A stretch of 15,264 nt of DNA, taken from a virus (taxonomy: Duplodnaviria; Heunggongvirae; Uroviricota; Caudoviricetes). Under the pieces are notes generated by a model. The model saw only the letters and a program-made list of their open reading frames with translations, did no database searches and was not told the origin of the DNA. Both the position numbers and the translations under genes were made by a program. Positions 2,150-13,301 of this stretch are shown here, piece by piece (the stretch's first letter is position 1; each line of letters opens with the position of its first letter). The stretch lies in the IMG/VR virus record IMGVR_UViG_2645727868_000018. One strand, written 5' to 3'.

Positions 2150-2381
2150 TAAATATTGCTCCAAAATCAGGTTCATCATCTTTTCGCGTCGTCACCTCCT
2201 GTAAATTGCGAAATTTTATTGGGTTCATGAAATGGCCCCAGGTTGTTTTTGGGTGTCCGTCAGCCCTTTCCATGAAGAAAATTCCAGCCCGGCGAAGAGC
2301 CTCACATTGCTTTGATTTAAGTGGGCTTCCCGTCAGCTCGACCATTTCTTCTCTGGTGATTATGTCGTGATCGCTTTTCAT
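2118..2381 (-). CDS. xis: Excisionase-like small DNA-binding protein
   Basis: 87-aa ORF immediately upstream of and overlapping int. The segment ITREEMVELTGSPLKSKQCEALRRAGIFFMERADGHPKTTW resembles the winged-helix core of phage excisionases. The ribosome-binding site GAGGAAAGACC sits immediately before the ATG at 2381. Family assignment by eye only. Confidence 0.5.
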   Translation of the reverse strand: MKSDHDIITREEMVELTGSPLKSKQCEALRRAGIFFMERADGHPKTTWGHFMNPIKFRNLQEVTTRKDDEPDFGAIFNGRKEKEPSR

Positions 2382-2541
2382 GGTCTTTCCTCATTATGTA
2401 GCTTATTGCGTCATCTGCCTTCTGGCAGGCACGGGCAATATCAGACTCGGTCAAAGTCTGTTTCCTGACGCTGGCCGACAGTCGACCAATTTTGATATCA
2501 AATGCGGAGAGCAGAGTTGCTCCCGGTTGCCATCGCAGCAT
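2317..2541 (-). CDS. Hypothetical protein (74 aa from first in-frame ATG)
   Basis: The ORF-track entry 2317..2571 starts with TTG; the first ATG at 2541 has a good SD (GGAGGA, about 6-nt spacer). Its 3' end overlaps the xis-like ORF by 65 nt in another frame, so one of the two calls or their starts may be wrong. Confidence 0.3.
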   Translation of the reverse strand: MLRWQPGATLLSAFDIKIGRLSASVRKQTLTESDIARACQKADDAISYIMRKDHEKRSRHNHQRRNGRADGKPT

Positions 2542-3342: not shown

Positions 3343-5555
3343 GCTGTTTGCTCCTGTGCAGCGGTAAGGGCGGCGAGGCGTTCAGTTTTAATGTCGGTGA
3401 TACGGCGCAGACGTGATCCCAGATACGATGAATATTCTTTATCGCCTTTGGTTTCCGCTGCTTTCCTGTGTACATCCACTTCGCGGGCGATGAGGCCAAA
3501 TACCTTGTTTACTTCGTTGGCGGTTACCGCGGCGGCCAGCGTATTGGCAACGTTGATAAGCTTCTCATCCAGTTCCTTACGCAGACGGGTAGCATCTTCC
3601 GCATTCTCGCTGGCATTCTTGATATCAAACTCAGCTTTATTCCTCTGGCGGTATTCCGGATTGTCGTACAGGCCCATGAAAATATCGGCGCTGAATCCGA
3701 GAGGGGATAGCGCTTTCTTAACAGCATCCGTCCAGGATTTCTTCGGTGCTTCGCCGTCGCTTGTTGGTCCGTATTTAGTGTCGTAGATATAAGGTGTGCA
3801 TCCGTAAGCCTCGGACTCACCGCGTACCCCATTCAATATGTACCAGACTCTCACTTTCATGGTGTGGTGCATTTCACATAGGTACCCGCCAACACCGTCT
3901 TGAATCAGATCCCATTCTATTTTTTCACCAACCTGTTTTTTGCGAACTATTGGTGCGCCTTTATCAAAGCGCTCCTCCAGCACCTCTACCCCCCAGCCAA
4001 TACCAAATGGCCCAAATTCGCGAGTCGCTTTCATCGCTATATAAGTGCCGTTGATGGATGTGCCGCCGCCATTCTGAGAGAAAGCACTGGTGAAGCGCTC
4101 ATCGGTTTTGAATACGTTCTTCCACAATGCCAGGTTATCCGTGTCATCTGAGTCCTTTAACTCCGTTTCGATAGCTGAGATTGCATTCTGCCGCTTGTGC
4201 TCTTCGGCATGGATCCGCTCAACCAGCGCGTCAACGTTCTGCACCAGATCCTTTACCTGCTCGCTAAGTTGTTCTTGTGGAGGAGTCTCTTCTGCCAGGG
4301 TAATAGCTGCAGGTTCCCTCTGTGATACGGCGTTATTTTCAGGTACGTCATACACATGGCGAGGCGTGACAAACTGCTCACGCAACTGCTGCAAACTACG
4401 TTCTCCAGCATTTGCAGCTTCGCTTTTTTCGCCCTGATTTGAGGGTGTTTCTGACATCATCCCATCAATTGAGAATCGTCCGCCGCCGTGGTTGGTGACT
4501 TTTACATCATCCTTGGGTGCTGCTTCCTTTGGCTTCTCTTCAACAGCATTTGCATCACGCTGCCCGTTAGCTTGCAGCCAGTTGTCGATGTGACTGCGCA
4601 GGGATTGTGGGAAGTGGTACGTGTCTTTTGCGGGGGCGCTCTGAATAACACCGAATACTGATGCGCGGTCATAGGCAAGGATCTGATCCGTTGTGCGCAA
4701 GGCCATTGACCAGCGTTTAAAATCTTCCCTGTCCTGACTGATTATTTCGTCTGCCGCTTTCAGGATGCTGGGGGTGATTTTTTCCGGGGCAACAGGTAAC
4801 AGGGCGCAGGCAATTTCACGATCCAGAGTGGCGTGAGTCTGTTTGTAAGGACGTGCGGATGCTGTTTCTGGTTTTACCTCCGGCAGCATTTCATCTCGTT
4901 TACCGGGATTCTCTACCCATTTTTTTATAAATTTGGAGATAGTCCAACTGGTCGGGTTTTGTTCCTGGGTATCGCAACTTGCCAAAATTGCATGTACCAG
5001 ATTATTCAATCCAGCAATATGCATGTACTCGATGGGCTTACACGCCACCATGGCATCAAGAACGATGCGGTTAAACGCGTCAACCTCATCCTCACTGTCA
5101 GTATCACTGTTATCGAGCATCTCCAGGTATTCACGCGTCTGCACAAGCAATTCACTGTCGACTTCGTTGGCGTCGTGGCTGAACAGCAGAACGGCGGCGA
5201 ATCGTTCACGAGCCGGCAGTTTCATCAGGTCGCTAACCTGTGAGATATCTGCTGAACTGCAATCTGAATCAACAGGAGTGTTAACTACCCATTTTTCGCC
5301 ATCAAAACTGTGTTCTGTGGCAAACGTCTCATCAAACTCACCGACGCCTGGGCGCGGTTGGCCCGGGGCATCTTCCCAGATTTTAGGTTTGAAATAGTTG
5401 TCGCCGTGGTCAGGGTAGGCTTCCCACAATTTGCCGATGATGATGTTCTCGGCAACTTTTTTGTTAGGGGCGGCGATGGCGATGGCCAGCGCCGGGATCG
5501 CGCCGTTTTTGAGCGCGCCTTTTTTCGCTTCTAACAAGCCGTTAAAAATGGTCAT
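3339..5555 (-). CDS. Large phage protein (738 aa) with Rad52/Sak-type single-strand annealing domain in its C-terminal half; N-terminal ~450 aa of unknown function
   Basis: Uninterrupted 2217-nt ORF with the motif GAGGAAAGACC-A-ATG at its start. Residues ~480-640 (GGYLCEMHH...APKKSWTDAVKKALSPLGFSADIFMGLYDN) resemble the conserved core of Rad52/Sak annealing proteins (compare Rad52 KKSAVTDALKRSLRGFG and Sak SSALKRCASSGFGIGRYLYDL, both recalled from memory). Acidic low-complexity linker (DNSDTDSEDEVD) and a C-terminal coiled coil. Confidence 0.55.
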   Translation of the reverse strand: MTIFNGLLEAKKGALKNGAIPALAIAIAAPNKKVAENIIIGKLWEAYPDHGDNYFKPKIWEDAPGQPRPGVGEFDETFATEHSFDGEKWVVNTPVDSDCSSADISQVSDLMKLPARERFAAVLLFSHDANEVDSELLVQTREYLEMLDNSDTDSEDEVDAFNRIVLDAMVACKPIEYMHIAGLNNLVHAILASCDTQEQNPTSWTISKFIKKWVENPGKRDEMLPEVKPETASARPYKQTHATLDREIACALLPVAPEKITPSILKAADEIISQDREDFKRWSMALRTTDQILAYDRASVFGVIQSAPAKDTYHFPQSLRSHIDNWLQANGQRDANAVEEKPKEAAPKDDVKVTNHGGGRFSIDGMMSETPSNQGEKSEAANAGERSLQQLREQFVTPRHVYDVPENNAVSQREPAAITLAEETPPQEQLSEQVKDLVQNVDALVERIHAEEHKRQNAISAIETELKDSDDTDNLALWKNVFKTDERFTSAFSQNGGGTSINGTYIAMKATREFGPFGIGWGVEVLEERFDKGAPIVRKKQVGEKIEWDLIQDGVGGYLCEMHHTMKVRVWYILNGVRGESEAYGCTPYIYDTKYGPTSDGEAPKKSWTDAVKKALSPLGFSADIFMGLYDNPEYRQRNKAEFDIKNASENAEDATRLRKELDEKLINVANTLAAAVTANEVNKVFGLIAREVDVHRKAAETKGDKEYSSYLGSRLRRITDIKTERLAALTAAQEQTA

Positions 5556-5585
5556 TGGTCTTTCCTCATTACAGGTCAGTGGTTT

Positions 5586-5906
5586 TTAGTAGGGGAGCTC
5601 ATCGGTATCTGGCGTGTATTCGATGCAAAGTAACTGCTGGATTTTGTCATCGATAGCAGCAATACGCTGTTGGGCGTCGGCGACTGTTTTCTGTTTTTGT
5701 TCACGCAGTTGCTCGACCTGTAAACCGATGATGTCGATTGGCTCGGGCTGGTTAACGGTAATTTCAATTTCGCGGCTTTCCAGAAGGATGTACCTGTCTG
5801 GAAAATTTTTTGACATATCAACAGTCGCAACAAGCAGCTTTTCGTGGCTGAAAGTTGAAGTTGCATAATGAATAAAGAGTGTTACTGGGATGGTGCGCGC
5901 TTCCAT
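5586..5906 (-). CDS. Hypothetical protein (106 aa), first gene of the leftward early operon
   Basis: Strong SD (AAGGAG) 7 nt before the ATG at 5906; its stop lies 30 nt upstream of the 738-aa gene start. No recognisable family; not arginine-rich, so not N-like. Confidence 0.5.
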   Translation of the reverse strand: MEARTIPVTLFIHYATSTFSHEKLLVATVDMSKNFPDRYILLESREIEITVNQPEPIDIIGLQVEQLREQKQKTVADAQQRIAAIDDKIQQLLCIEYTPDTDELPY

Positions 5907-6303
5907 AGCGACTCCTTGGTAATGTATACTCAGAGCCGATCAGCGAATATTGATCAGCTTCCATAGCGTCAGTGTCGTTGGTCTTTCCTCATCACAAGTT
6001 TGGTCACTTGTGATAAATCCGAATGGTTTGGTCGCCGTTCGGGGTAACTGGCCCGCCTTGTGCGGGTCTTTTGCTATCTAAAGGGTGCCGGTTACGTTTC
6101 CGGCGTCGTTATGTTTCCATTACGACCGTACAGGGCTGGTCAGGCCCGGGCTGGTCTTTCCTGTTTTGAGCTGGTCAGGCTCATGGTCAACGCTGGTCAG
6201 GCGTGGTACTTCCTCCGGTCTTTCCCTGGTGTCACGCTGCGGGTTTGGCCTCTCCTGTTGGGGACTCAGGCACAGCGATAAAACCTGGCTGTGTGAAAAA
6301 ATG

Positions 6304-6323
6304 GCCCATCGTGCGGACTGGGC
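6304..6323 (-). terminator. Terminator-like hairpin plus U6 on the minus strand, 3' of the tRNA-like fragment
   Basis: Minus-strand reading GCCCA-gtccgcacga-TGGGC followed by CA-TTTTTT (plus 6296-6301 is AAAAAA). Short 5-bp stem with a 10-nt loop, so only a weak candidate. Confidence 0.25.
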
Positions 6324-6344
6324 AAAGACTAAACACAGCAAATT

Positions 6345-6372
6345 GATGATGGGCGCCCGGAATCGAACCGGG
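6345..6372 (-). other. tRNA-like fragment (T-arm plus acceptor-like 3' strand) inside the leftward leader
   Basis: Minus-strand sequence CCCGG-TTCGATT-CCGGG-CGCCCAT has a perfect 5-bp T-stem and canonical T-loop. No complementary acceptor 5' strand, D-arm or CCA could be found, so it is not a complete tRNA gene. Confidence 0.3.
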
Positions 6373-6769
6373 TAACGGGCAGGGAGTTCCCGTTAAACAC
6401 CTGTTCACCACAACCGGGAGCGCACTCCGCCATTTCAAAATTTAACGACAAAGCTCAAAGTTGAGTCGATGAAGTGCGCTCTCGTGTTGTAGCCAGGACT
6501 CTTCCCTGGTGGTCACACCGTATCGCCTTGATGGTGAATCAATCGCTCATACCTGGCTGTGGCTTGCACATTCCGGCTACCTGCTATGGAGACAACGCGT
6601 TAAGGCTCCGCTTCCATCCAGACCGCTTCGACACATGTGCCATATGCCGGTGAAGTCTTTCCCTCTGTCACCGTGTTGGCGCCGACGCGCAAAATTTGGT
6701 GCCGTCTTTCCGGCTGTCAGAACGTGTTTCTGAACAACTGCCGCTGGGTAAGCGTTGTTGATGAAAGTG

Positions 6770-6798
6770 ACTTTACAATTTGTATTTGTAATGGTCAA
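6770..6798 (-). promoter_or_regulatory. Candidate leftward early promoter (pL-like) with embedded operator motif
   Basis: On the minus strand: -35 TTGACC (rc of 6793-6798), 17-bp spacer ATTACAAATACAAATTG, -10 TAAAGT (rc of 6770-6775). The spacer and flank carry the same ATTTGTA-type motif as the cI/cro operator region (ATAATTTGTA also at 6811-6820). Confidence 0.4.
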
Positions 6799-6916
6799 TG
6801 TGTTTTTAAAAAATAATTTGTAGTGAGGGGCAAAAAAATATTCACTGTGTAAAGGTGTTTTTGTGTTAGGGGAAAGTTGCATGCCAGCAGCGGCTGGCCT
6901 GGAAATTTGAACTGAA

Positions 6917-7345
6917 CTATTTTGTCTGGTTTTTGGCTTCAAGTAGTTCTTTTAGCAGTAGATCGAAGTGCTCTCTTTTTTCTTTTAGCTCATTGATTAA
7001 TTTATTTTTTTCGCTCTCAGGCAGTCCTCTGAATAGTTGCAGTAGAGCCTGTTCTTGCGGGGTTAGTTCTTGATTGTAATTACCCGGGTGTAGTGTGGAT
7101 TCATCCAAATATTCCCCTTCATTCATGAAGAAAAAATGAACAGGGTATCCGGTCACTTTTGCTAGCTTGTCTAATTTATCTTTTCTTGGAGTTACCCCAT
7201 TACACCATGCCTGAACTGATTGAGCCGTAACCCCAATATGGCGAGCTAACTCAGATTGAGACCAGCCTAAGTCTTTTAGAATCCGTTGTAGTCGGCTAGC
7301 AAAAGCCATGTTTTTCGTTTTTGTGTTCATACCGTAAGGATACAA
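6917..7345 (-). CDS. Phage repressor, XRE-family HTH, without S24 peptidase domain (CI/RacR-like)
   Basis: 142-aa ORF divergent from the cro-like gene. HTH motif ...LGWSQSELARHIGVTAQSVQAWCNG... in the N-terminal part; the C-terminal ~60 aa is a charged coiled coil with no Ser/Lys autopeptidase motifs. Start uncertain (Met at 7345, 7330 or 7309); the transcript may be leaderless. Confidence 0.8.
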   Translation of the reverse strand: MYPYGMNTKTKNMAFASRLQRILKDLGWSQSELARHIGVTAQSVQAWCNGVTPRKDKLDKLAKVTGYPVHFFFMNEGEYLDESTLHPGNYNQELTPQEQALLQLFRGLPESEKNKLINELKEKREHFDLLLKELLEAKNQTK

Positions 7346-7428
7346 GGTTTAATTGTAGGGAGCATTGCAAATATAATTTGTAATTACAGTTATTGTTTGT
7401 AATGATGACGCGGACACAAGGAGTCCAT
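7346..7428. promoter_or_regulatory. Divergent immunity promoter/operator region (pRM-like leftward, pR-like rightward)
   Basis: Near-palindromes ATTGCAAAT-ATA-ATTTGTAAT (7364-7384) and ATTACA-N9-TGTAAT (7383-7403). Consensus -10 TATAAT at 7372-7377 on the plus strand; TACAAT (rc of 7352-7357) lies about 7 nt before the repressor ATG on the minus strand. Confidence 0.5.
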
Positions 7429-7659
7429 ATGGATAAACAACTGCAAGACAAAATTCTTTCCGTAATGAGTCAATCCGAGTTAGGGCGGCGATTAGGGAAA
7501 AAACCACAAACGGTAAGCCTCTGGTTCAAAGGACGGGTTCCCGGTGAAGAGGTTTTGCGCACATCTGAAGCTCTTGAATGGCGCGTGACCCCTCATGATC
7601 TTAGACCGGATCTTTACCCAAACCCAGATGACAGCTTGCCTAAAACGGAAGCAGCTTAA
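7429..7659 (+). CDS. Cro-like regulator (YdaS/Cro family HTH)
   Basis: Start placed at the ATG at 7429 with SD AAGGAG 7 nt upstream (the ORF track offers 7393). The translation MDKQLQDKILSVMSQSELGRRLGKKPQTVSLWFKGRVP...DLRPDLYP shows the HTH and the LRPD motif shared with Rac YdaS-type Cro proteins. Confidence 0.75.
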   Translation: MDKQLQDKILSVMSQSELGRRLGKKPQTVSLWFKGRVPGEEVLRTSEALEWRVTPHDLRPDLYPNPDDSLPKTEAA

Positions 7660-7717
7660 CTGTTGGTGAGCCCCAAATCTGATTAAGCGTAATCAATTTT
7701 TAGCGACAGGAGACGCT

Positions 7718-8194
7718 ATGGAAAACCAAGAGGAATTACAAAAAGAGATTTTGACCTGGGCGGCAAGGGCAGGGCAGGAACTCGTCACGATTGAAATCTG
7801 CCGGGCCTGGTTCAGTCAGGGACGCAATGATGAGTTGAGACTACATGAATTTGAGGACGCGGACGGCAACGTGGACTGGAGAGCCATCAACAACAATCGG
7901 CAGAAAATCTTTCGCTGGTTACGTGGCGAGACAACGGCGGCGCGCCGAAAAACTCAGGTGCTGGCCAGTGTGATGAAAGCCGTGCTACCCGCAGAACGGC
8001 GGGCACGTCTGGAGTCGCCGGGCGATCCCGTTTTGCTGGCAACGCTGGCGGCAAAAGAAGGGGTGGAAGCGATTAACGCTGTACATCTCCACTTCGCGCC
8101 AGAGTTAACTATTCAGGAAATTGACGAAGCAATAGCGGCGCTGGTAGCGACGCGAGGAGCAGTGATACGCACTGCGCAAGACCACCATGCATGA
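7718..8194 (+). CDS. CII-like early regulatory protein (YdaT/CP76-like), tentative
   Basis: 158-aa ORF with SD AGGAG, immediately downstream of cro as in the Rac ydaS-ydaT and lambda cro-cII arrangements. The family call rests on synteny and general resemblance only. Confidence 0.45.
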   Translation: MENQEELQKEILTWAARAGQELVTIEICRAWFSQGRNDELRLHEFEDADGNVDWRAINNNRQKIFRWLRGETTAARRKTQVLASVMKAVLPAERRARLESPGDPVLLATLAAKEGVEAINAVHLHFAPELTIQEIDEAIAALVATRGAVIRTAQDHHA

Positions 8195-8233
8195 GCGCCT
8201 GACCAGCGTTTAACTTATACCGAGGAAAGACCG

Positions 8234-8458
8234 ATGTTAAGACATATTGACCGCATTACCTGGCGTAACGGCTGGCACCTGAATGGACGCCCGGCACATG
8301 TTGCAGAGATCCGCCCCATATTCGATGGCCGCGTCGCAGCTGCACGTTCTGTATGGGAAAAGTACGAAGAAGAAAAAGCGAAACTGCGTGAGCAAAATCT
8401 CTCTGGCGCTGCCTATGAGGCTGGCTGTCGCGTTCTCTCAGAGGCTTTGGGCATATGA
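8234..8458 (+). CDS. Hypothetical protein (74 aa)
   Basis: Preceded by the conserved motif GAGGAAAGACC-G-ATG. Its stop overlaps the next start (ATGA), consistent with translational coupling to the replication gene. Confidence 0.45.
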   Translation: MLRHIDRITWRNGWHLNGRPAHVAEIRPIFDGRVAAARSVWEKYEEEKAKLREQNLSGAAYEAGCRVLSEALGI

Positions 8459-9210
8459 ACATCCTCCCGTTACTTGATAGACCCATAGCCTTCCAGAGAA
8501 GTTTTATCCGTCTTGAAATGGGCGTGACTGCCGCATTGTTTCTGTCGCAGTTGACGTACTGGACAAACAGAACAACTGACGACGGCTGGGTATATAAAAC
8601 CCAGGATGAGTGGGAAGAGGAAACAGGGCTTTCACGATACGAGCAGGAGGGCGCGCGCAAAAAACTACGTGGTCTCGGCGTCTTGCTGGAACGTAAACAG
8701 GGCTTGCCTGCCAGGCTGTACTACAAAATCGATAATGATGTGTTGTGCCAGCTACTTACGTCCGCATACAAGGATGCGGAAAAACCACATACAGGTGAGG
8801 GGAAAACCACCAGGCCTGTACGTGGAAAACCAACAAACATTCTTACAGAGAATACTACAGAGATTATTACTGATGGTGAATCGGCTGACGCCGACACCCA
8901 ACAACCTGCCGACCAGAGAATAAATTATCAGGTGATACTCGATACCTATCACGAGATTTTGCCAGAGATGCCACCAGTGAAAATCCTCACTGACGGCAGA
9001 AAAAAACACCTTCGCACTTTCTGGAAAAAATTCAATTTCAATGAGTCCCGTTGGCGGGCCTATCTGGAATTTATCGGTGGCAATTGTCGCTGGATGCTGG
9101 AGGACAGGCCAAATGGCAGGGGAGGATTCTGGCGGCGTAAAAATCTTGATTATCTGATTACCGAACGCTGCTATGTTTCGGTCAAGGAAGAACGCGCAAA
9201 TGATAAATAA
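8455..9210 (+). CDS. Phage replication initiation protein / replisome organizer (lambda O, P22 gp18 functional analog)
   Basis: 251-aa ORF. N-terminal winged-helix-like region (...TQDEWEEETGLSRYEQEGARKKLRGLGVLLERKQG...), central linker encoded by iteron-like DNA, conserved C-terminal region (...RWRAYLEFIGGNCRWMLEDRPNGRGGFWRRKNLDYLI...). Lies immediately upstream of and overlaps a DnaB-family helicase gene. Confidence 0.65.
   Translation: MNILPLLDRPIAFQRSFIRLEMGVTAALFLSQLTYWTNRTTDDGWVYKTQDEWEEETGLSRYEQEGARKKLRGLGVLLERKQGLPARLYYKIDNDVLCQLLTSAYKDAEKPHTGEGKTTRPVRGKPTNILTENTTEIITDGESADADTQQPADQRINYQVILDTYHEILPEMPPVKILTDGRKKHLRTFWKKFNFNESRWRAYLEFIGGNCRWMLEDRPNGRGGFWRRKNLDYLITERCYVSVKEERANDK
8778..8875. 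repeat. Candidate replication origin: three iteron-like direct repeats GGAAAA(A)CCA(C/A)CA at 23-bp spacing followed by an AT-rich tract, inside the replication initiator gene
   Basis: Seen in sequence: repeats at 8778-8789, 8801-8812 and 8824-8835, then the AT-rich stretch ACAAACATTCTTACAGAGAATACTACAGAGATTATTAC. Lambda-type origins sit within the O gene linker in the same way. Confidence 0.35.
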
Positions 9211-10615: not shown

Positions 10616-10653
10616 CCACGCCTGACCAGCGTGAAATAACCGAGGAAAGACCA

Positions 10654-11064
10654 ATGACCACCACTCCAGGCAAATTAGAGTACCCGTCGGACAAAGGACA
10701 CATAGACGACGGTAAAAACTATCTCGACGTCATTTTGTGGAATATGAACGTCGGGCCACGTGCGCGCACTCGCGCGGTTTTTGTGCCAAGACCTAAAGCA
10801 GGCAATTTTTCAACCCCTGCTAAGCCTGCCCGTCAGGCATCCGTAGCCGCAGCGCCAGCAGTGAAACGTAAGGGCAAAACGCACACCGGGATCGCGATTC
10901 GCAGAAATGGTGAGCGGCAAGTGAAACTCCACGAAACAGCGACAACCTGGTGTGCCTCACCGCATGAAACTTACGACAAGATAACCGGGCAGCGCATTGG
11001 CGCGCCTGGTCGCTGCCGCCTGCTGCTGAGTTCCATCACTCCGATAGCAAAGAAAGGGGCGTGA
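10654..11064 (+). CDS. Hypothetical protein (136 aa), basic and Pro/Ala-rich
   Basis: Preceded by the conserved junction cassette CGCCTGACCAGCG-N9-GAGGAAAGACC-A-ATG; no recognisable family. Confidence 0.5.
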   Translation: MTTTPGKLEYPSDKGHIDDGKNYLDVILWNMNVGPRARTRAVFVPRPKAGNFSTPAKPARQASVAAAPAVKRKGKTHTGIAIRRNGERQVKLHETATTWCASPHETYDKITGQRIGAPGRCRLLLSSITPIAKKGA

Positions 11065-12241: not shown

Positions 12242-12270
12242 TTGACTTAGAAAAAGTCCGGGGCTATAGT
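12242..12270 (+). promoter_or_regulatory. Near-consensus sigma70 promoter (TTGACT, 17 bp, TATAGT) upstream of the antirepressor leader
   Basis: Seen in sequence: -35 TTGACT at 12242-12247, 17-bp spacer, -10 TATAGT at 12265-12270. Located directly after the stop of the 73-aa ORF. Confidence 0.5.
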
Positions 12271-12330
12271 TTCCGCGCAGCCGCAAAATCGGTTGCCGGG
12301 ATTGGCGTCCCGGATATCTAAGTGACGCAT

Positions 12331-12351
12331 AGCCGCGTTAGCGGTTTTTTT
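12331..12351 (+). terminator. Short intrinsic terminator or attenuator (6-bp stem with one G-U pair, 4-nt loop, U7) about 75 nt downstream of the promoter
   Basis: AGCCGC-GTTA-GCGGTT followed by TTTTT (T-run 12345-12351). Preceded by a perfect hairpin CCGGGA-TTGGCG-TCCCGG at 12296-12313. Together with the promoter this defines a short transcript or a leader attenuator about 160 nt ahead of the antirepressor start. Confidence 0.4.
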
Positions 12352-12512
12352 ATGTGTTAGGCACGGCCACATTCGCATTATGGTGGGCTGTGTGGGGGCT
12401 TCTGTGGAAGCGCCGGGTTCACTTAGCCGGTTACGCCAACCCTGCACAGCTCACCACCAGATGATTGGCGTCGCTGGTGGTGATGAAAAAAACACTAAGT
12501 GAGGCCACTGCG

Positions 12513-13301
12513 ATGACAGTCCAAATATCTGCGGAATCCCTTTCTCCGCTACATCATAACCAACTTCCCGTCATCACTACTGAATTGCTTGCCAGTTTGT
12601 ATGGCACGGAAGTAAATGGTATCCAGCAAAACTTCAAGCGCAACATCGCCAGATTTGTCGTAGGAAAGCATTTTTTTAAGCTGGAAGGTAATGAATTACG
12701 CGACTTCAAAAACAGACTGACAGATAGTCAGTCAGTTGCTAAACATACCCGATCCCTCATTCTCTGGACAGAACGCGGCGCAGCTCGCCATGCCAAAATG
12801 CTGGAAACAGAACAGGCCTGGGAAGTTTTCGAAAAGCTGGAAGATTGTTATTTTAGCCAGCGTCCAGAGAGGCGGAGTACAACTACCGATGACCGTACTC
12901 CCTTGCGTGATGCCGTTAATATACTGGTCGGCAAGAAAGGCATGATGTATCCCGATGCCTACACCATGATTCATCAACGCTTCGCCGTCTCTCACATAGA
13001 ACAACTGTCACAGACGCAAATGTTAGAGGCGATTGAATACATCCACTGCCTGCTACTCGATGAAAATCACCCAACCATTCCAGATTTTTCTTTTATCACC
13101 ACTATCAAAAATGGAAAAGTGACCGGGATGCGCCATGTTGCCAAAGGCGAACATCTGATGACCTTTGACGCTTTCAAAGAGATCGCTGAGCGGGCAGGGT
13201 ATCTGGTGATCCACAGCGACAATCTGCGAAGTATGACACTGGATAAATTGATGGTAATGGGGAAAAAGTCGGCTATATCCGTTGCTAATTCAGCATTTTG
13301 A
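12513..13301 (+). CDS. Phage antirepressor-like protein with ORF6N-type N-terminal domain
   Basis: N-terminal region LPVITTELLASLYGTEVNGIQQNFKRNIARFVVGKHFFKLEGNELRDF matches the recalled ORF6N (antirepressor/Rha-like) pattern. Start placed at ATG 12513 (SD GTGAGG, 8-nt spacer); the ORF-track start at 12465 is a TTG inside a hairpin. Confidence 0.65.
   Translation: MTVQISAESLSPLHHNQLPVITTELLASLYGTEVNGIQQNFKRNIARFVVGKHFFKLEGNELRDFKNRLTDSQSVAKHTRSLILWTERGAARHAKMLETEQAWEVFEKLEDCYFSQRPERRSTTTDDRTPLRDAVNILVGKKGMMYPDAYTMIHQRFAVSHIEQLSQTQMLEAIEYIHCLLLDENHPTIPDFSFITTIKNGKVTGMRHVAKGEHLMTFDAFKEIAERAGYLVIHSDNLRSMTLDKLMVMGKKSAISVANSAF

Follow-up and report, generated by a model that had tools for sequence, protein, structure and literature searches.

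A hairpin and extended Shine-Dalgarno cassette at the heads of early gene blocks in a lambdoid prophage family, and a predicted antisense RNA that carries its complement

The stretch analysed here, 15,264 nucleotides (nt) of the IMG/VR virus record IMGVR_UViG_2645727868_000018 and hereafter called the window, is Escherichia coli chromosome; it leads from pgsA and the tRNA-Gly/Cys/Leu genes (701-1002) into a cryptic lambdoid prophage of about 13 kb, and the start of a cheY-like gene forms the end of the window. The leftward early operon of the prophage runs from a pL-like promoter through an untranslated leader of about 860 nt to the genes for a 106- and a 738-amino-acid protein, a Gp157-family gene, a gene for 60 amino acids, a DUF4224 xis-like gene and the integrase gene. 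The rightward operon carries a cro/YdaS-like and a YdaT-like gene, a 74-amino-acid gene, RepO-like and DnaB genes, a 136-amino-acid gene and several small genes, and operator-like TTACAAAT repeats are visible at the pL region. Of 5,426 complete E. coli genomes, about 450-475 carry the element in near-identical form; to judge by strain names, most of these are of ST131 type. Our subject is a short cassette, recurring at the heads of genes in both early operons and in the pL leader, together with a predicted antisense RNA encoded opposite the 3' end of that leader; the coordinates of these features are collected in Table 1.

Table 1. Features of the cassette system and its surroundings in the window
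Feature	Position	Strand	Basis or remark
GAGGAAAGACC + ATG of the DUF4224 xis-like gene, without upstream hairpin	2379-2392	-	sequence
Cassette before the 738-amino-acid gene: CTGACCT 5579-5573, GAGGAAAGACC 5567-5557, A, ATG 5555-5553	5553-5582	-	stemless here
Candidate -10 box TATACT	5925-5930	+	conserved; relatives have TATACT, TATAAT or TATAAA
Predicted antisense RNA: hairpin HP1, UUGGUCUUUCCUC 5978-5990, HP2 5991-6014, HP3 6019-6042, terminator	5935-6075	+	alignment of 54 relatives, wobble asymmetry, covariation, minimum free energy (MFE)
Last leader GAGGAAAGACC, start-less, about 75 nt before the 106-amino-acid gene	5980-5990	-	exact copy here in 77/77 protein-anchored relatives
Intrinsic terminator GGCCCGCCUUGUGCGGGUC + UUUU	6050-6072	+	terminator scan and alignment
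Leader array without open reading frame starts	6133-6227	-	same arrangement in relatives' leaders; proposed decoys
RprA-like seed UGCUGUGUUUAGUCUUUGCCC followed by intrinsic terminator t1, upstream of the proposed decoy array	6294-6404	-	RF00034, 37.4 bits, E = 0.03
5' leader copies: hairpin GCCG-GAAAGA-CGGC 6714-6701; GGGAAAGAC 6663-6655	6655-6714	-	both are GAAAGA-loop hairpins in relatives
pL-like promoter TTGACC-17-TAAAGT	6770-6798	-	promoter scan; drives leader and left early operon
cI-like repressor gene	7345-6917
Junction hairpin A, 7-bp stem including two G.U pairs, loop CUGACCA 8199-8205	8192-8212	+	fold about -6.5 kcal/mol, not exceptional alone
GAGGAAAGACC + G + ATG of the 74-amino-acid gene	8222-8236	+	extended Shine-Dalgarno
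Junction hairpin B CACGC-CUGACCA-GCGUG, 2 nt past the DnaB stop	10617-10633	+	-6.6 kcal/mol, z = -1.9
GAGGAAAGACC + A + ATG of the 136-amino-acid gene	10642-10656	+	sequence

An initial annotation of this DNA had drawn attention to a 9-mer, GGAAAGACC, and we found its seven exact copies at the positions it gave (minus strand 2382, 5557, 5980, 6153 and 6217; plus strand 8224 and 10644), each in the sense orientation of the local operon as it had claimed. Its chance expectation of about 0.1 was likewise reproduced by shuffled sequences, which gave 0.10, and none of 200 shuffles reached seven copies. The 11-mer GAGGAAAGACC is present exactly five times in the window, as is CCTGACCAGC (6135, 6170 and 6192 on the minus strand, 8198 and 10621 on the plus strand). 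The 41-nt cassette string given for 8196-8236 was right, but the second string is 38 nt long and occupies 10619-10656, so that its noted start, 10618, was one base off. As described there, the cassettes begin directly after the upstream stop codon: those on the plus strand 1-4 nt after TGA 8192-8194 or TAA 10613-10615, and the minus-strand copy at 5553-5582 3 nt after TAA 5588-5586. The reported reuse at gene starts applies to four gene heads but not to the 9-mer copies at 5980, 6153 and 6217, three of the seven, which lie in the untranslated leader and precede no gene. The hairpin, the start-less leader copies and the antisense partner described below had no place in that annotation.

The cassette has two halves. 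Its upstream half is an RNA hairpin in which a short and variable stem of 4-7 base pairs (bp) carries a conserved 7-nt loop, (C/A)UGACCA, as was seen from a list of 423 distinct contexts; its downstream half is a Shine-Dalgarno sequence (GAGG) continued by an invariant AAAGACC, 0-4 nt from the start codon. Between the hairpin and GAGGAAAGACC lie 9-12 nt, and GAGGAAAGACC(AA) is followed by the start codon. The stems vary by compensation around an unchanged loop (GGCGC/GCGCC, CACGC/GCGUG, GAGC/GCUC, GGGC/GCCC), the inner stem variants seen around it being GCGC, ACGC, GAGC, GGGC and AGGC, and a Watson-Crick stem of at least 4 bp occurs in 86 of 568 distinct NTGACCA contexts (15%) as against 0.5% of random positions. 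Because each hairpin of the window is weak when taken alone, the case for the hairpin rests on this covariation. Hairpin A overlaps the stop codon of the ydaT-like gene (8192-8194), and its fourth pair is G-C, G.U or A-U in different relatives, a series that favours the sense strand; the wobble asymmetry of the outer stem extension of the junction hairpins was uninformative (13 versus 25). The related form that had been noted before the 738-amino-acid gene does contain a loop-like CTGACCT, but its stem is absent in the window; in relatives, the cassette before the 738-amino-acid-type gene has one, GGCGC-GTGACCT-GCGCC.

The bipartite pattern CCTGACCAGCG-N5-20-GAGGAAAGACC occurs in more than 120 IMG/VR contigs among the matches listed. 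We also re-sampled the family by homology to the neighbouring 106-amino-acid protein instead of the motif, which yielded 77 loci, 73 after redundancy filtering. In all 77, the exact 9-mer lies within 130 nt upstream of the anchor gene, and these loci hold 5-11 copies per ~12 kb. The 9-mer stays exact while the anchor protein diverges to 50% identity, and the motif is retained in Serratia prophages at 54% protein identity. The initial annotation had proposed to look in related prophages for a bias of strand and position, and the bias found in the 73 non-redundant loci is complete, with 524 of 524 copies in the sense orientation: the 390 copies on the strand of the anchor gene are all in the left operon, the 134 on the other strand are all in the right operon, and there are no exceptions. 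A complete 44-kb phage relative has its gene-start and leader copies confined to the early region, and two more 9-mer matches lie inside its coding sequence, outside any cassette context. A homologue search with the 74-amino-acid protein returned close relatives only, and hence reached none with a changed motif. Our literature search found GAGGAAAGACC or its complement in no phage paper.

Downstream of the cassette, 230 distinct proteins fall into only about six gene families, namely the 70-74-amino-acid protein, the post-DnaB protein, a 700-800-amino-acid protein, DUF4224 and two minor families, and three of these families account for most instances. With so few families, the cassette therefore travels with particular genes and is not a marker of arbitrary mosaic joints. 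The hairpin accompanies it in 100% of the post-DnaB (136-amino-acid) family and in 0% of the DUF4224 family. Each of the four cassette genes in the window is the first cistron of a run of overlapping open reading frames (ORFs), namely 74aa-RepO-DnaB, 136aa-78aa-103aa-74aa, 738aa-Gp157-60aa and xis-int (aa, amino acids), and in the block with the RepO-like and DnaB genes the overlaps lie at 8455-8458 and 9200-9210. Since they open such runs, the cassettes sit where translation must begin afresh. Near the xis-proximal motif we also observed an unannotated ORF of 74 codons (2317-2541, minus strand) with a GGAGG Shine-Dalgarno 6 nt from its ATG at 2541; it runs through the motif and overlaps the xis start in another frame, and its frame is not obviously conserved in relatives.

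Apart from the three exact 9-mer copies named above, the untranslated leader holds two copies matching at 8 of 9 positions (6655-6663 and 6701-6714), and none of the five stands before a gene. In the leader array, xUGACCA hairpins alternate with (G/A)GGAAAGACC: GGGAAAGACC at 6226-6217, the hairpins ACGC-CUGACCA-GCGU (6204-6190) and GAGC-CUGACCA-GCUC (6182-6168), AGGAAAGACC at 6162-6153 and the hairpin GGGC-CUGACCA-GCCC (6147-6133). The leaders of relatives are modular and keep a common order, with two 5' hairpins that have GAAAGA loops, an RprA-like seed with an intrinsic terminator, the tandem cassette-like array, a terminator-like hairpin, a long hairpin with the loop GACCAA and the last GAGGAAAGACC. 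The 106-amino-acid gene that follows has an ordinary AAGGAG Shine-Dalgarno of its own. The module of RprA-like seed and terminator t1 is kept in relatives including those of Serratia; its RF00034 score lies below the gathering score of 70, and only the 3' seed and terminator align.

Other observations concern the leader as such. Termination at t1 would free a phage-made RNA with the conserved RprA seed, which might act on host targets of RprA. In many relatives (for example locus L007, 5480-4900, and locus L052, 8104-8930), a lambda-boxB-like pair of hairpins, CUUCAG-UGAAAA-CUGAAG and CCCUC-GAAAA-GAGGG, stands between t1 and the proposed decoy array; it is absent in the window. In another relative (locus L064, 6336-5270), a small ORF (MTKKDMTDMLIRSHG...) is inserted in the 5' leader with a start cassette of its own, GAGGAAAGACC-AAT-ATGACCA, ahead of it. 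An insert at about 6348-6649 on the minus strand is absent from relatives with short leaders, and other relatives have a different insert at the same position. Over about 170 nt the insert matches, at 70-77% identity, non-coding DNA without annotation in the unrelated phages SPN1S, Tyrion and SopranoGao and in the P1-like D6 and SJ46; after this stretch comes a decayed tRNA-like piece that has a perfect T-arm, CCGGUUCGAUUCCGG, and was not called by ARAGORN. In SPN1S and D6, a true tRNA gene of the phage adjoins the homologous stretch, so that the insert looks like a mobile tRNA-associated module. A megablast search of 5500-8500 against phage records gave no match, and blastn of the leader against them gave one full-length relative (BUCT708) and partial matches that correspond to the tRNA-associated insert. 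A type I-E spacer of a clustered regularly interspaced short palindromic repeat (CRISPR) array in E. coli XDL (NZ_CP043033) matches 6187-6218 over 32 of 32 nt, with an ATG protospacer adjacent motif, and so targets the proposed decoy array.

On the opposite strand, the 3' end of the leader tells a different story, since a plus-strand terminator, a conserved -10 box and a strand-specific fold lead us to predict from the sequence that about 5935-6075 encodes an antisense RNA of about 140 nt. The U-run of the terminator is on the plus strand in the window and in all 54 distinct relatives aligned. HP2 forms an uninterrupted plus-strand stem of 7-9 bp in 30 of 31 sequence variants, the remaining one being bulged on both strands, and about a dozen of the variants depend on G.U pairs that would be A.C mismatches on the leader strand, the reverse case occurring in none. 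In a 25-sequence alignment that includes Serratia, cells with G.U pairs favour the plus strand by 14:1 in HP2 and 38:5 in HP3, and by 52:6 overall. As to covariation, 17 of 25 pairs changed on both sides, and the score of 0.436, compared with 0.208 for shuffled alignments, was reached by 0 of 500 shuffles and collapsed in slid controls. The MFE of the plus strand at 5937-6079 is -62.1 kcal/mol (z = -6.55), and that of the leader strand is -41.9 kcal/mol (z = -3.6). We found the antisense signature in 75 of the 77 protein-anchored loci and in 95 of 127 loci selected by motif; the other 32 lie near contig ends, where truncation could explain the absence, and a few are borderline.

Neither the cassette nor the leader array nor the antisense element matched an Rfam family at the gathering or the E-value threshold, and no description of an antisense RNA at 5935-6075 was found in the literature. 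The prophage small RNAs (sRNAs) svsR and PasA-D were considered as its identity and ruled out, being at other loci. In the window, the element holds an insertion of about 30 nt (5941-5970, plus strand) that duplicates sequence from around the start of the 106-amino-acid gene (GCTTCCATAGCG), and HP1 is longer than in most relatives. A type I-E CRISPR spacer of E. coli 2020CK-00188, 33 nt long and exact at 5975-6007, targets the stretch that encodes the seed (the segment described next) and HP2 of the predicted RNA.

The segment UUGGUCUUUCCUC between HP1 and HP2, which we call the seed, is the exact complement of GAGGAAAGACCAA of the cassette, and its UUUCCUC is predicted to be unpaired with a mean probability of 0.72 over 25 homologues. 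The loops of HP2 (6000-6005) and HP3 (6028-6033) both read UUGGUC and are complementary to GACCA of the cassette loop. The order of the elements also suits antiparallel pairing, with hairpin and then Shine-Dalgarno on the mRNA, and seed and then loop on the sRNA. Duplex energies were computed with a 23-nt seed segment, as full-length duplex folding gave meaningless long-loop structures. With this segment, the duplexes were of -32.7 kcal/mol at the 738-amino-acid gene, -31.3 at the 136-amino-acid gene, -26.9 at the 74-amino-acid gene and -26.4 at xis, compared with -18.2 kcal/mol for the best of the 15 other gene starts (19 in total) and a window background of -10.5 +/- 3.6.

The cassette is thus best explained as an RNA-level control site at the head of each translationally coupled early block in this lambdoid prophage family. 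A shared element for translation initiation or RNA-level control was one of the two roles put forward by the initial annotation, and it agrees with the Shine-Dalgarno 0-4 nt from the starts, the covarying hairpin, the strict orientation and the predicted antisense RNA with its exact complement. As to how the site works, we propose, with a probability of roughly 0.45, that initiation is blocked at each cassette by pairing in trans with the antisense sRNA, for which the leader copies serve as decoys. The CUGACCA loop may form a U-turn of the YUNR type and expose GACCA; the YUNR U-turn consensus is known from antisense systems, and CUGA fits it. The loops of the sRNA would kiss the cassette hairpin first, after which the single-stranded seed would pair over the Shine-Dalgarno and start codon through 13-17 predicted base pairs. 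Such pairing would keep 30S subunits off the first gene of each of four blocks (replication, post-DnaB, recombination and xis-int) and would thereby also silence the coupled genes downstream. The two 5' hairpins, the three-hairpin array and the fully complementary cis copy would make up the decoys of the leader, which on induction, once pL fires, would titrate the sRNA and relieve repression. That the sRNA is produced, that it acts in trans and represses, and that the leader works as a decoy is what we infer from this arrangement. We regard the antisense element as well supported and the trans-acting mechanism as plausible but unproven.

Several points weigh against pairing in trans. In the predicted fold, HP1 takes up the UUGGUC of the seed (unpaired probability 0.07), and the candidate promoter of the antisense RNA consists of the -10 box, no good -35 having been found and a consensus promoter scan having made no call. 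Since the sRNA is antisense to one copy of the repeat, its complementarity to the others is automatic, and the duplex energies are therefore not independent evidence. The 9-mer never varies in relatives, leaving no compensatory change in trans to compare, and in loci with GUGGUU as the HP2 loop the target loops are still CUGACCA. At about -6.5 kcal/mol each, the cassette hairpins have little thermodynamic stability, the xis copy has no hairpin, and the 738-amino-acid copy in the window has lost its stem. Finally, the absolute invariance of the 9-mer across genera would fit an invariant host partner equally well.

This last point leads to the possibility that an RNA-binding protein, encoded by the phage or supplied by the host as an invariant factor, binds the cassettes and the leader copies with the logic of RegA or CsrA/CsrB, and that the antisense RNA, if made, is only a cis regulator of the pL leader. 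CsrA acts at a GGA site on the Shine-Dalgarno together with an upstream hairpin, and CsrB, an RNA with many sites, serves as its sponge; the present motif, too, is single-stranded at the Shine-Dalgarno and in the G-GAAAGA-C loops of the leader and has a multi-copy array in an untranslated leader, both of which are typical of protein sponges. Yet far more of the motif is conserved than the GGA core required by CsrA, the loop of the upstream hairpin has no GGA, and a Pfam scan found no RNA-binding domain in ten early proteins of the window. T4 RegA is one protein that acts on the initiation regions of many early genes through a loose AU-rich site, whereas here the site is invariant and the candidate factor is an RNA. 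A protein would also leave unexplained why a strand-specific antisense fold presents the exact complement in loops and a single-stranded segment, and we consider this explanation unlikely.

Similarly unlikely in our estimate is an autonomous cis element, that is, a strong re-initiation site, made of a Shine-Dalgarno and an optimal spacer, next to a small hairpin by which the cistron upstream is insulated or stabilised; it would have been copied to a few gene heads and then kept, the antisense RNA acting only on its own leader and the 106-amino-acid gene. GAGG 7-11 nt from the ATG, the placement of the cassettes exactly where cistrons do not overlap, their stable association with the same gene families and the short U-runs after some hairpins are all consistent with it. 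On this view, however, there is no account of why the leader has at least five copies that lack a start, why AAAGACC and the 7-nt loop stay invariant although stems and proteins change, or why other genes of the same operons have ordinary Shine-Dalgarno sequences.

Processive antitermination of the early operons, with the hairpins as its nut/boxB-like or put-like sites, seems to us very unlikely. It is true that the elements follow pL and also occur inside the pR operon, that transcription of the leader has to read through the intrinsic terminator t1, and that lambda-like CCCUC-GAAAA-GAGGG hairpins occur in the leaders of some relatives. Nevertheless, we found no N-like ORF in the leader or elsewhere, no conserved leader ORF and no Pfam match pointing to N; the boxA scan was at chance (12 matches against 11.5 expected), with none near a cassette or in the leader. 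The loop has 7 nt and is no GNRA-like pentaloop, each phage has 4-11 copies and not a single one in each operon, and a ribosome binding site makes up half of the element. As for the nut sites of lambda and P22 themselves, these too are short hairpins of early leaders in which the stem covaries and the loop is conserved, and P22 boxB, GCGCUGACAAAGCGC, resembles GCGCCUGACCAGCGC. They differ in that the cassette phages have no N gene, no CGCUCUUA-like boxA lies near the cassette, and its 7-nt loop is present in many copies fused to the ribosome binding site.

The second role suggested by the initial annotation, a conserved linker that gives homology for the exchange of modules between phages, agrees with the position of cassettes at module boundaries, the mosaic leaders and the considerable variation of the downstream protein within the post-DnaB family, but is not supported, and we think it highly improbable: the cassette precedes only about six homologous families among the 230 distinct downstream proteins, and a linker for recombination would not be expected to follow transcription strictly in its orientation, to have a covarying stem or to form leader arrays. 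The last explanation is rRNA mimicry, in which the motif, or else its antisense, would interact with rRNA or with a factor associated with the ribosome: GGAAAGACC is identical to 23S rRNA 2056-2064 in the peptidyl-transferase/macrolide site, and the high conservation of the 23S segment 2054-2068 among bacteria would account for a 9-mer that does not vary. The identity derives from E. coli 23S rRNA 2054-2068, ACGGAAAGACCCCGU (PMC12887398), and GGAAAGACC falls at the A2058 macrolide/Erm site within this sequence, which is the TLR13 ligand. We give this idea hardly any credence and regard the identity as probably a coincidence, for it stops at the flanks, no candidate factor is known, and by an arithmetic estimate the chance of finding a given 9-mer anywhere in the rRNAs, on either strand, is about 3%.

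Among known systems, the immunity RNAs C4 of P1/P7 and CI of P4 are the closest functional analogues of the predicted sRNA with its cassettes, and the start-associated sequence (SAS) and extended SAS (ESAS) of Cluster K mycobacteriophages the closest descriptive analogue; neither its sequence nor its defining structure places the cassette in one of these families. C4 (RF01695, RF03163; sites a1/b1 and a2/b2) and the P4 CI RNA (seqA/seqC) are, like the predicted RNA, small structured phage RNAs whose exposed segments face a bipartite target over a ribosome binding site, with extra target-like copies upstream in the same leader, and they form an RNA layer of immunity. Both are processed out of the sense transcript, whereas the predicted RNA is antisense to the leader, and its predicted targets, at no fewer than four gene heads, are spread across the two divergent early operons and not gathered in one. 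Judged by bipartite pairing of the C4 type, complementarity and order of elements fit, and compensatory variation is absent, as the 9-mer is invariant. The C4 and c4-a1b1 covariance models matched only at 12264-12461, with no match at 5935-6075 or at the cassettes. At that position on the plus strand, a complete isrK / c4-a1b1 / C4 antisense RNA module, with every part above its Rfam gathering score, is directly followed by an ORF6N/antirepressor-like gene (12465-13301); the cryptic prophage therefore retains a second immunity module based on RNA, this one of a known kind.

Lambda OOP and P22 sar are short RNAs that have their own promoter and an intrinsic terminator and lie opposite an early transcript. 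The predicted RNA resembles them in its antisense-strand intrinsic terminator and in a fold conserved on that strand, but OOP and sar act on the one transcript that they overlap, and the predicted RNA also matches repeated sites elsewhere in the genome. SAS is a short asymmetric repeat that takes in the Shine-Dalgarno region. It is found directly ahead of the start codon in some of the non-structural genes and has the same orientation in nearly every case; an inverted-repeat feature precedes about half of its copies, and its function is unknown (Pope et al. 2011, PMC3203893). The cassette likewise is an asymmetric repeat including the Shine-Dalgarno, 0-8 nt upstream of the starts of a subset of genes and in one orientation. 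In contrast, the SAS consensus is 5'-GGGATAGGAGCCC and the cassette motif GAGGAAAGACC, the hosts are different, and ESAS has 17-bp conserved half-sites around a variable spacer where the cassette has a variable stem of 4-7 bp and a conserved 7-nt loop. Neither an antisense partner nor a leader array has been reported for SAS.

Taken together, we regard the observation as solid and place the system with phage antisense-RNA control. The model is directly testable by a Northern blot and four reporter fusions with compensatory mutations (GGAAAGACC -> GGAUAGACC). A wider picture, which we offer as speculative and rather doubtful, is that an enterobacterial prophage family, including a cryptic member fixed in E. 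coli ST131, uses a frozen RNA code in which one sRNA gates all early modules and the induced pL leader acts as a sponge, so that a prophage already in the cell, intact or defective, could shut off the early genes of related phages that enter. Because the code is identical among phages with different leader and early-gene variants, RNA-based cross-immunity without dependence on repressor specificity would be possible. If true, the model would add a post-transcriptional master switch to lambdoid early gene control, and it would give a role to the long untranslated pL leader, otherwise unexplained, of these phages that have no N gene. It would also provide a mechanistic precedent for the unexplained start-associated sequences of mycobacteriophages. 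Finally, it would predict repressor-independent interference between related prophages and imply that a regulatory function has been kept by the cryptic prophage in the several hundred E. coli genomes that carry it.

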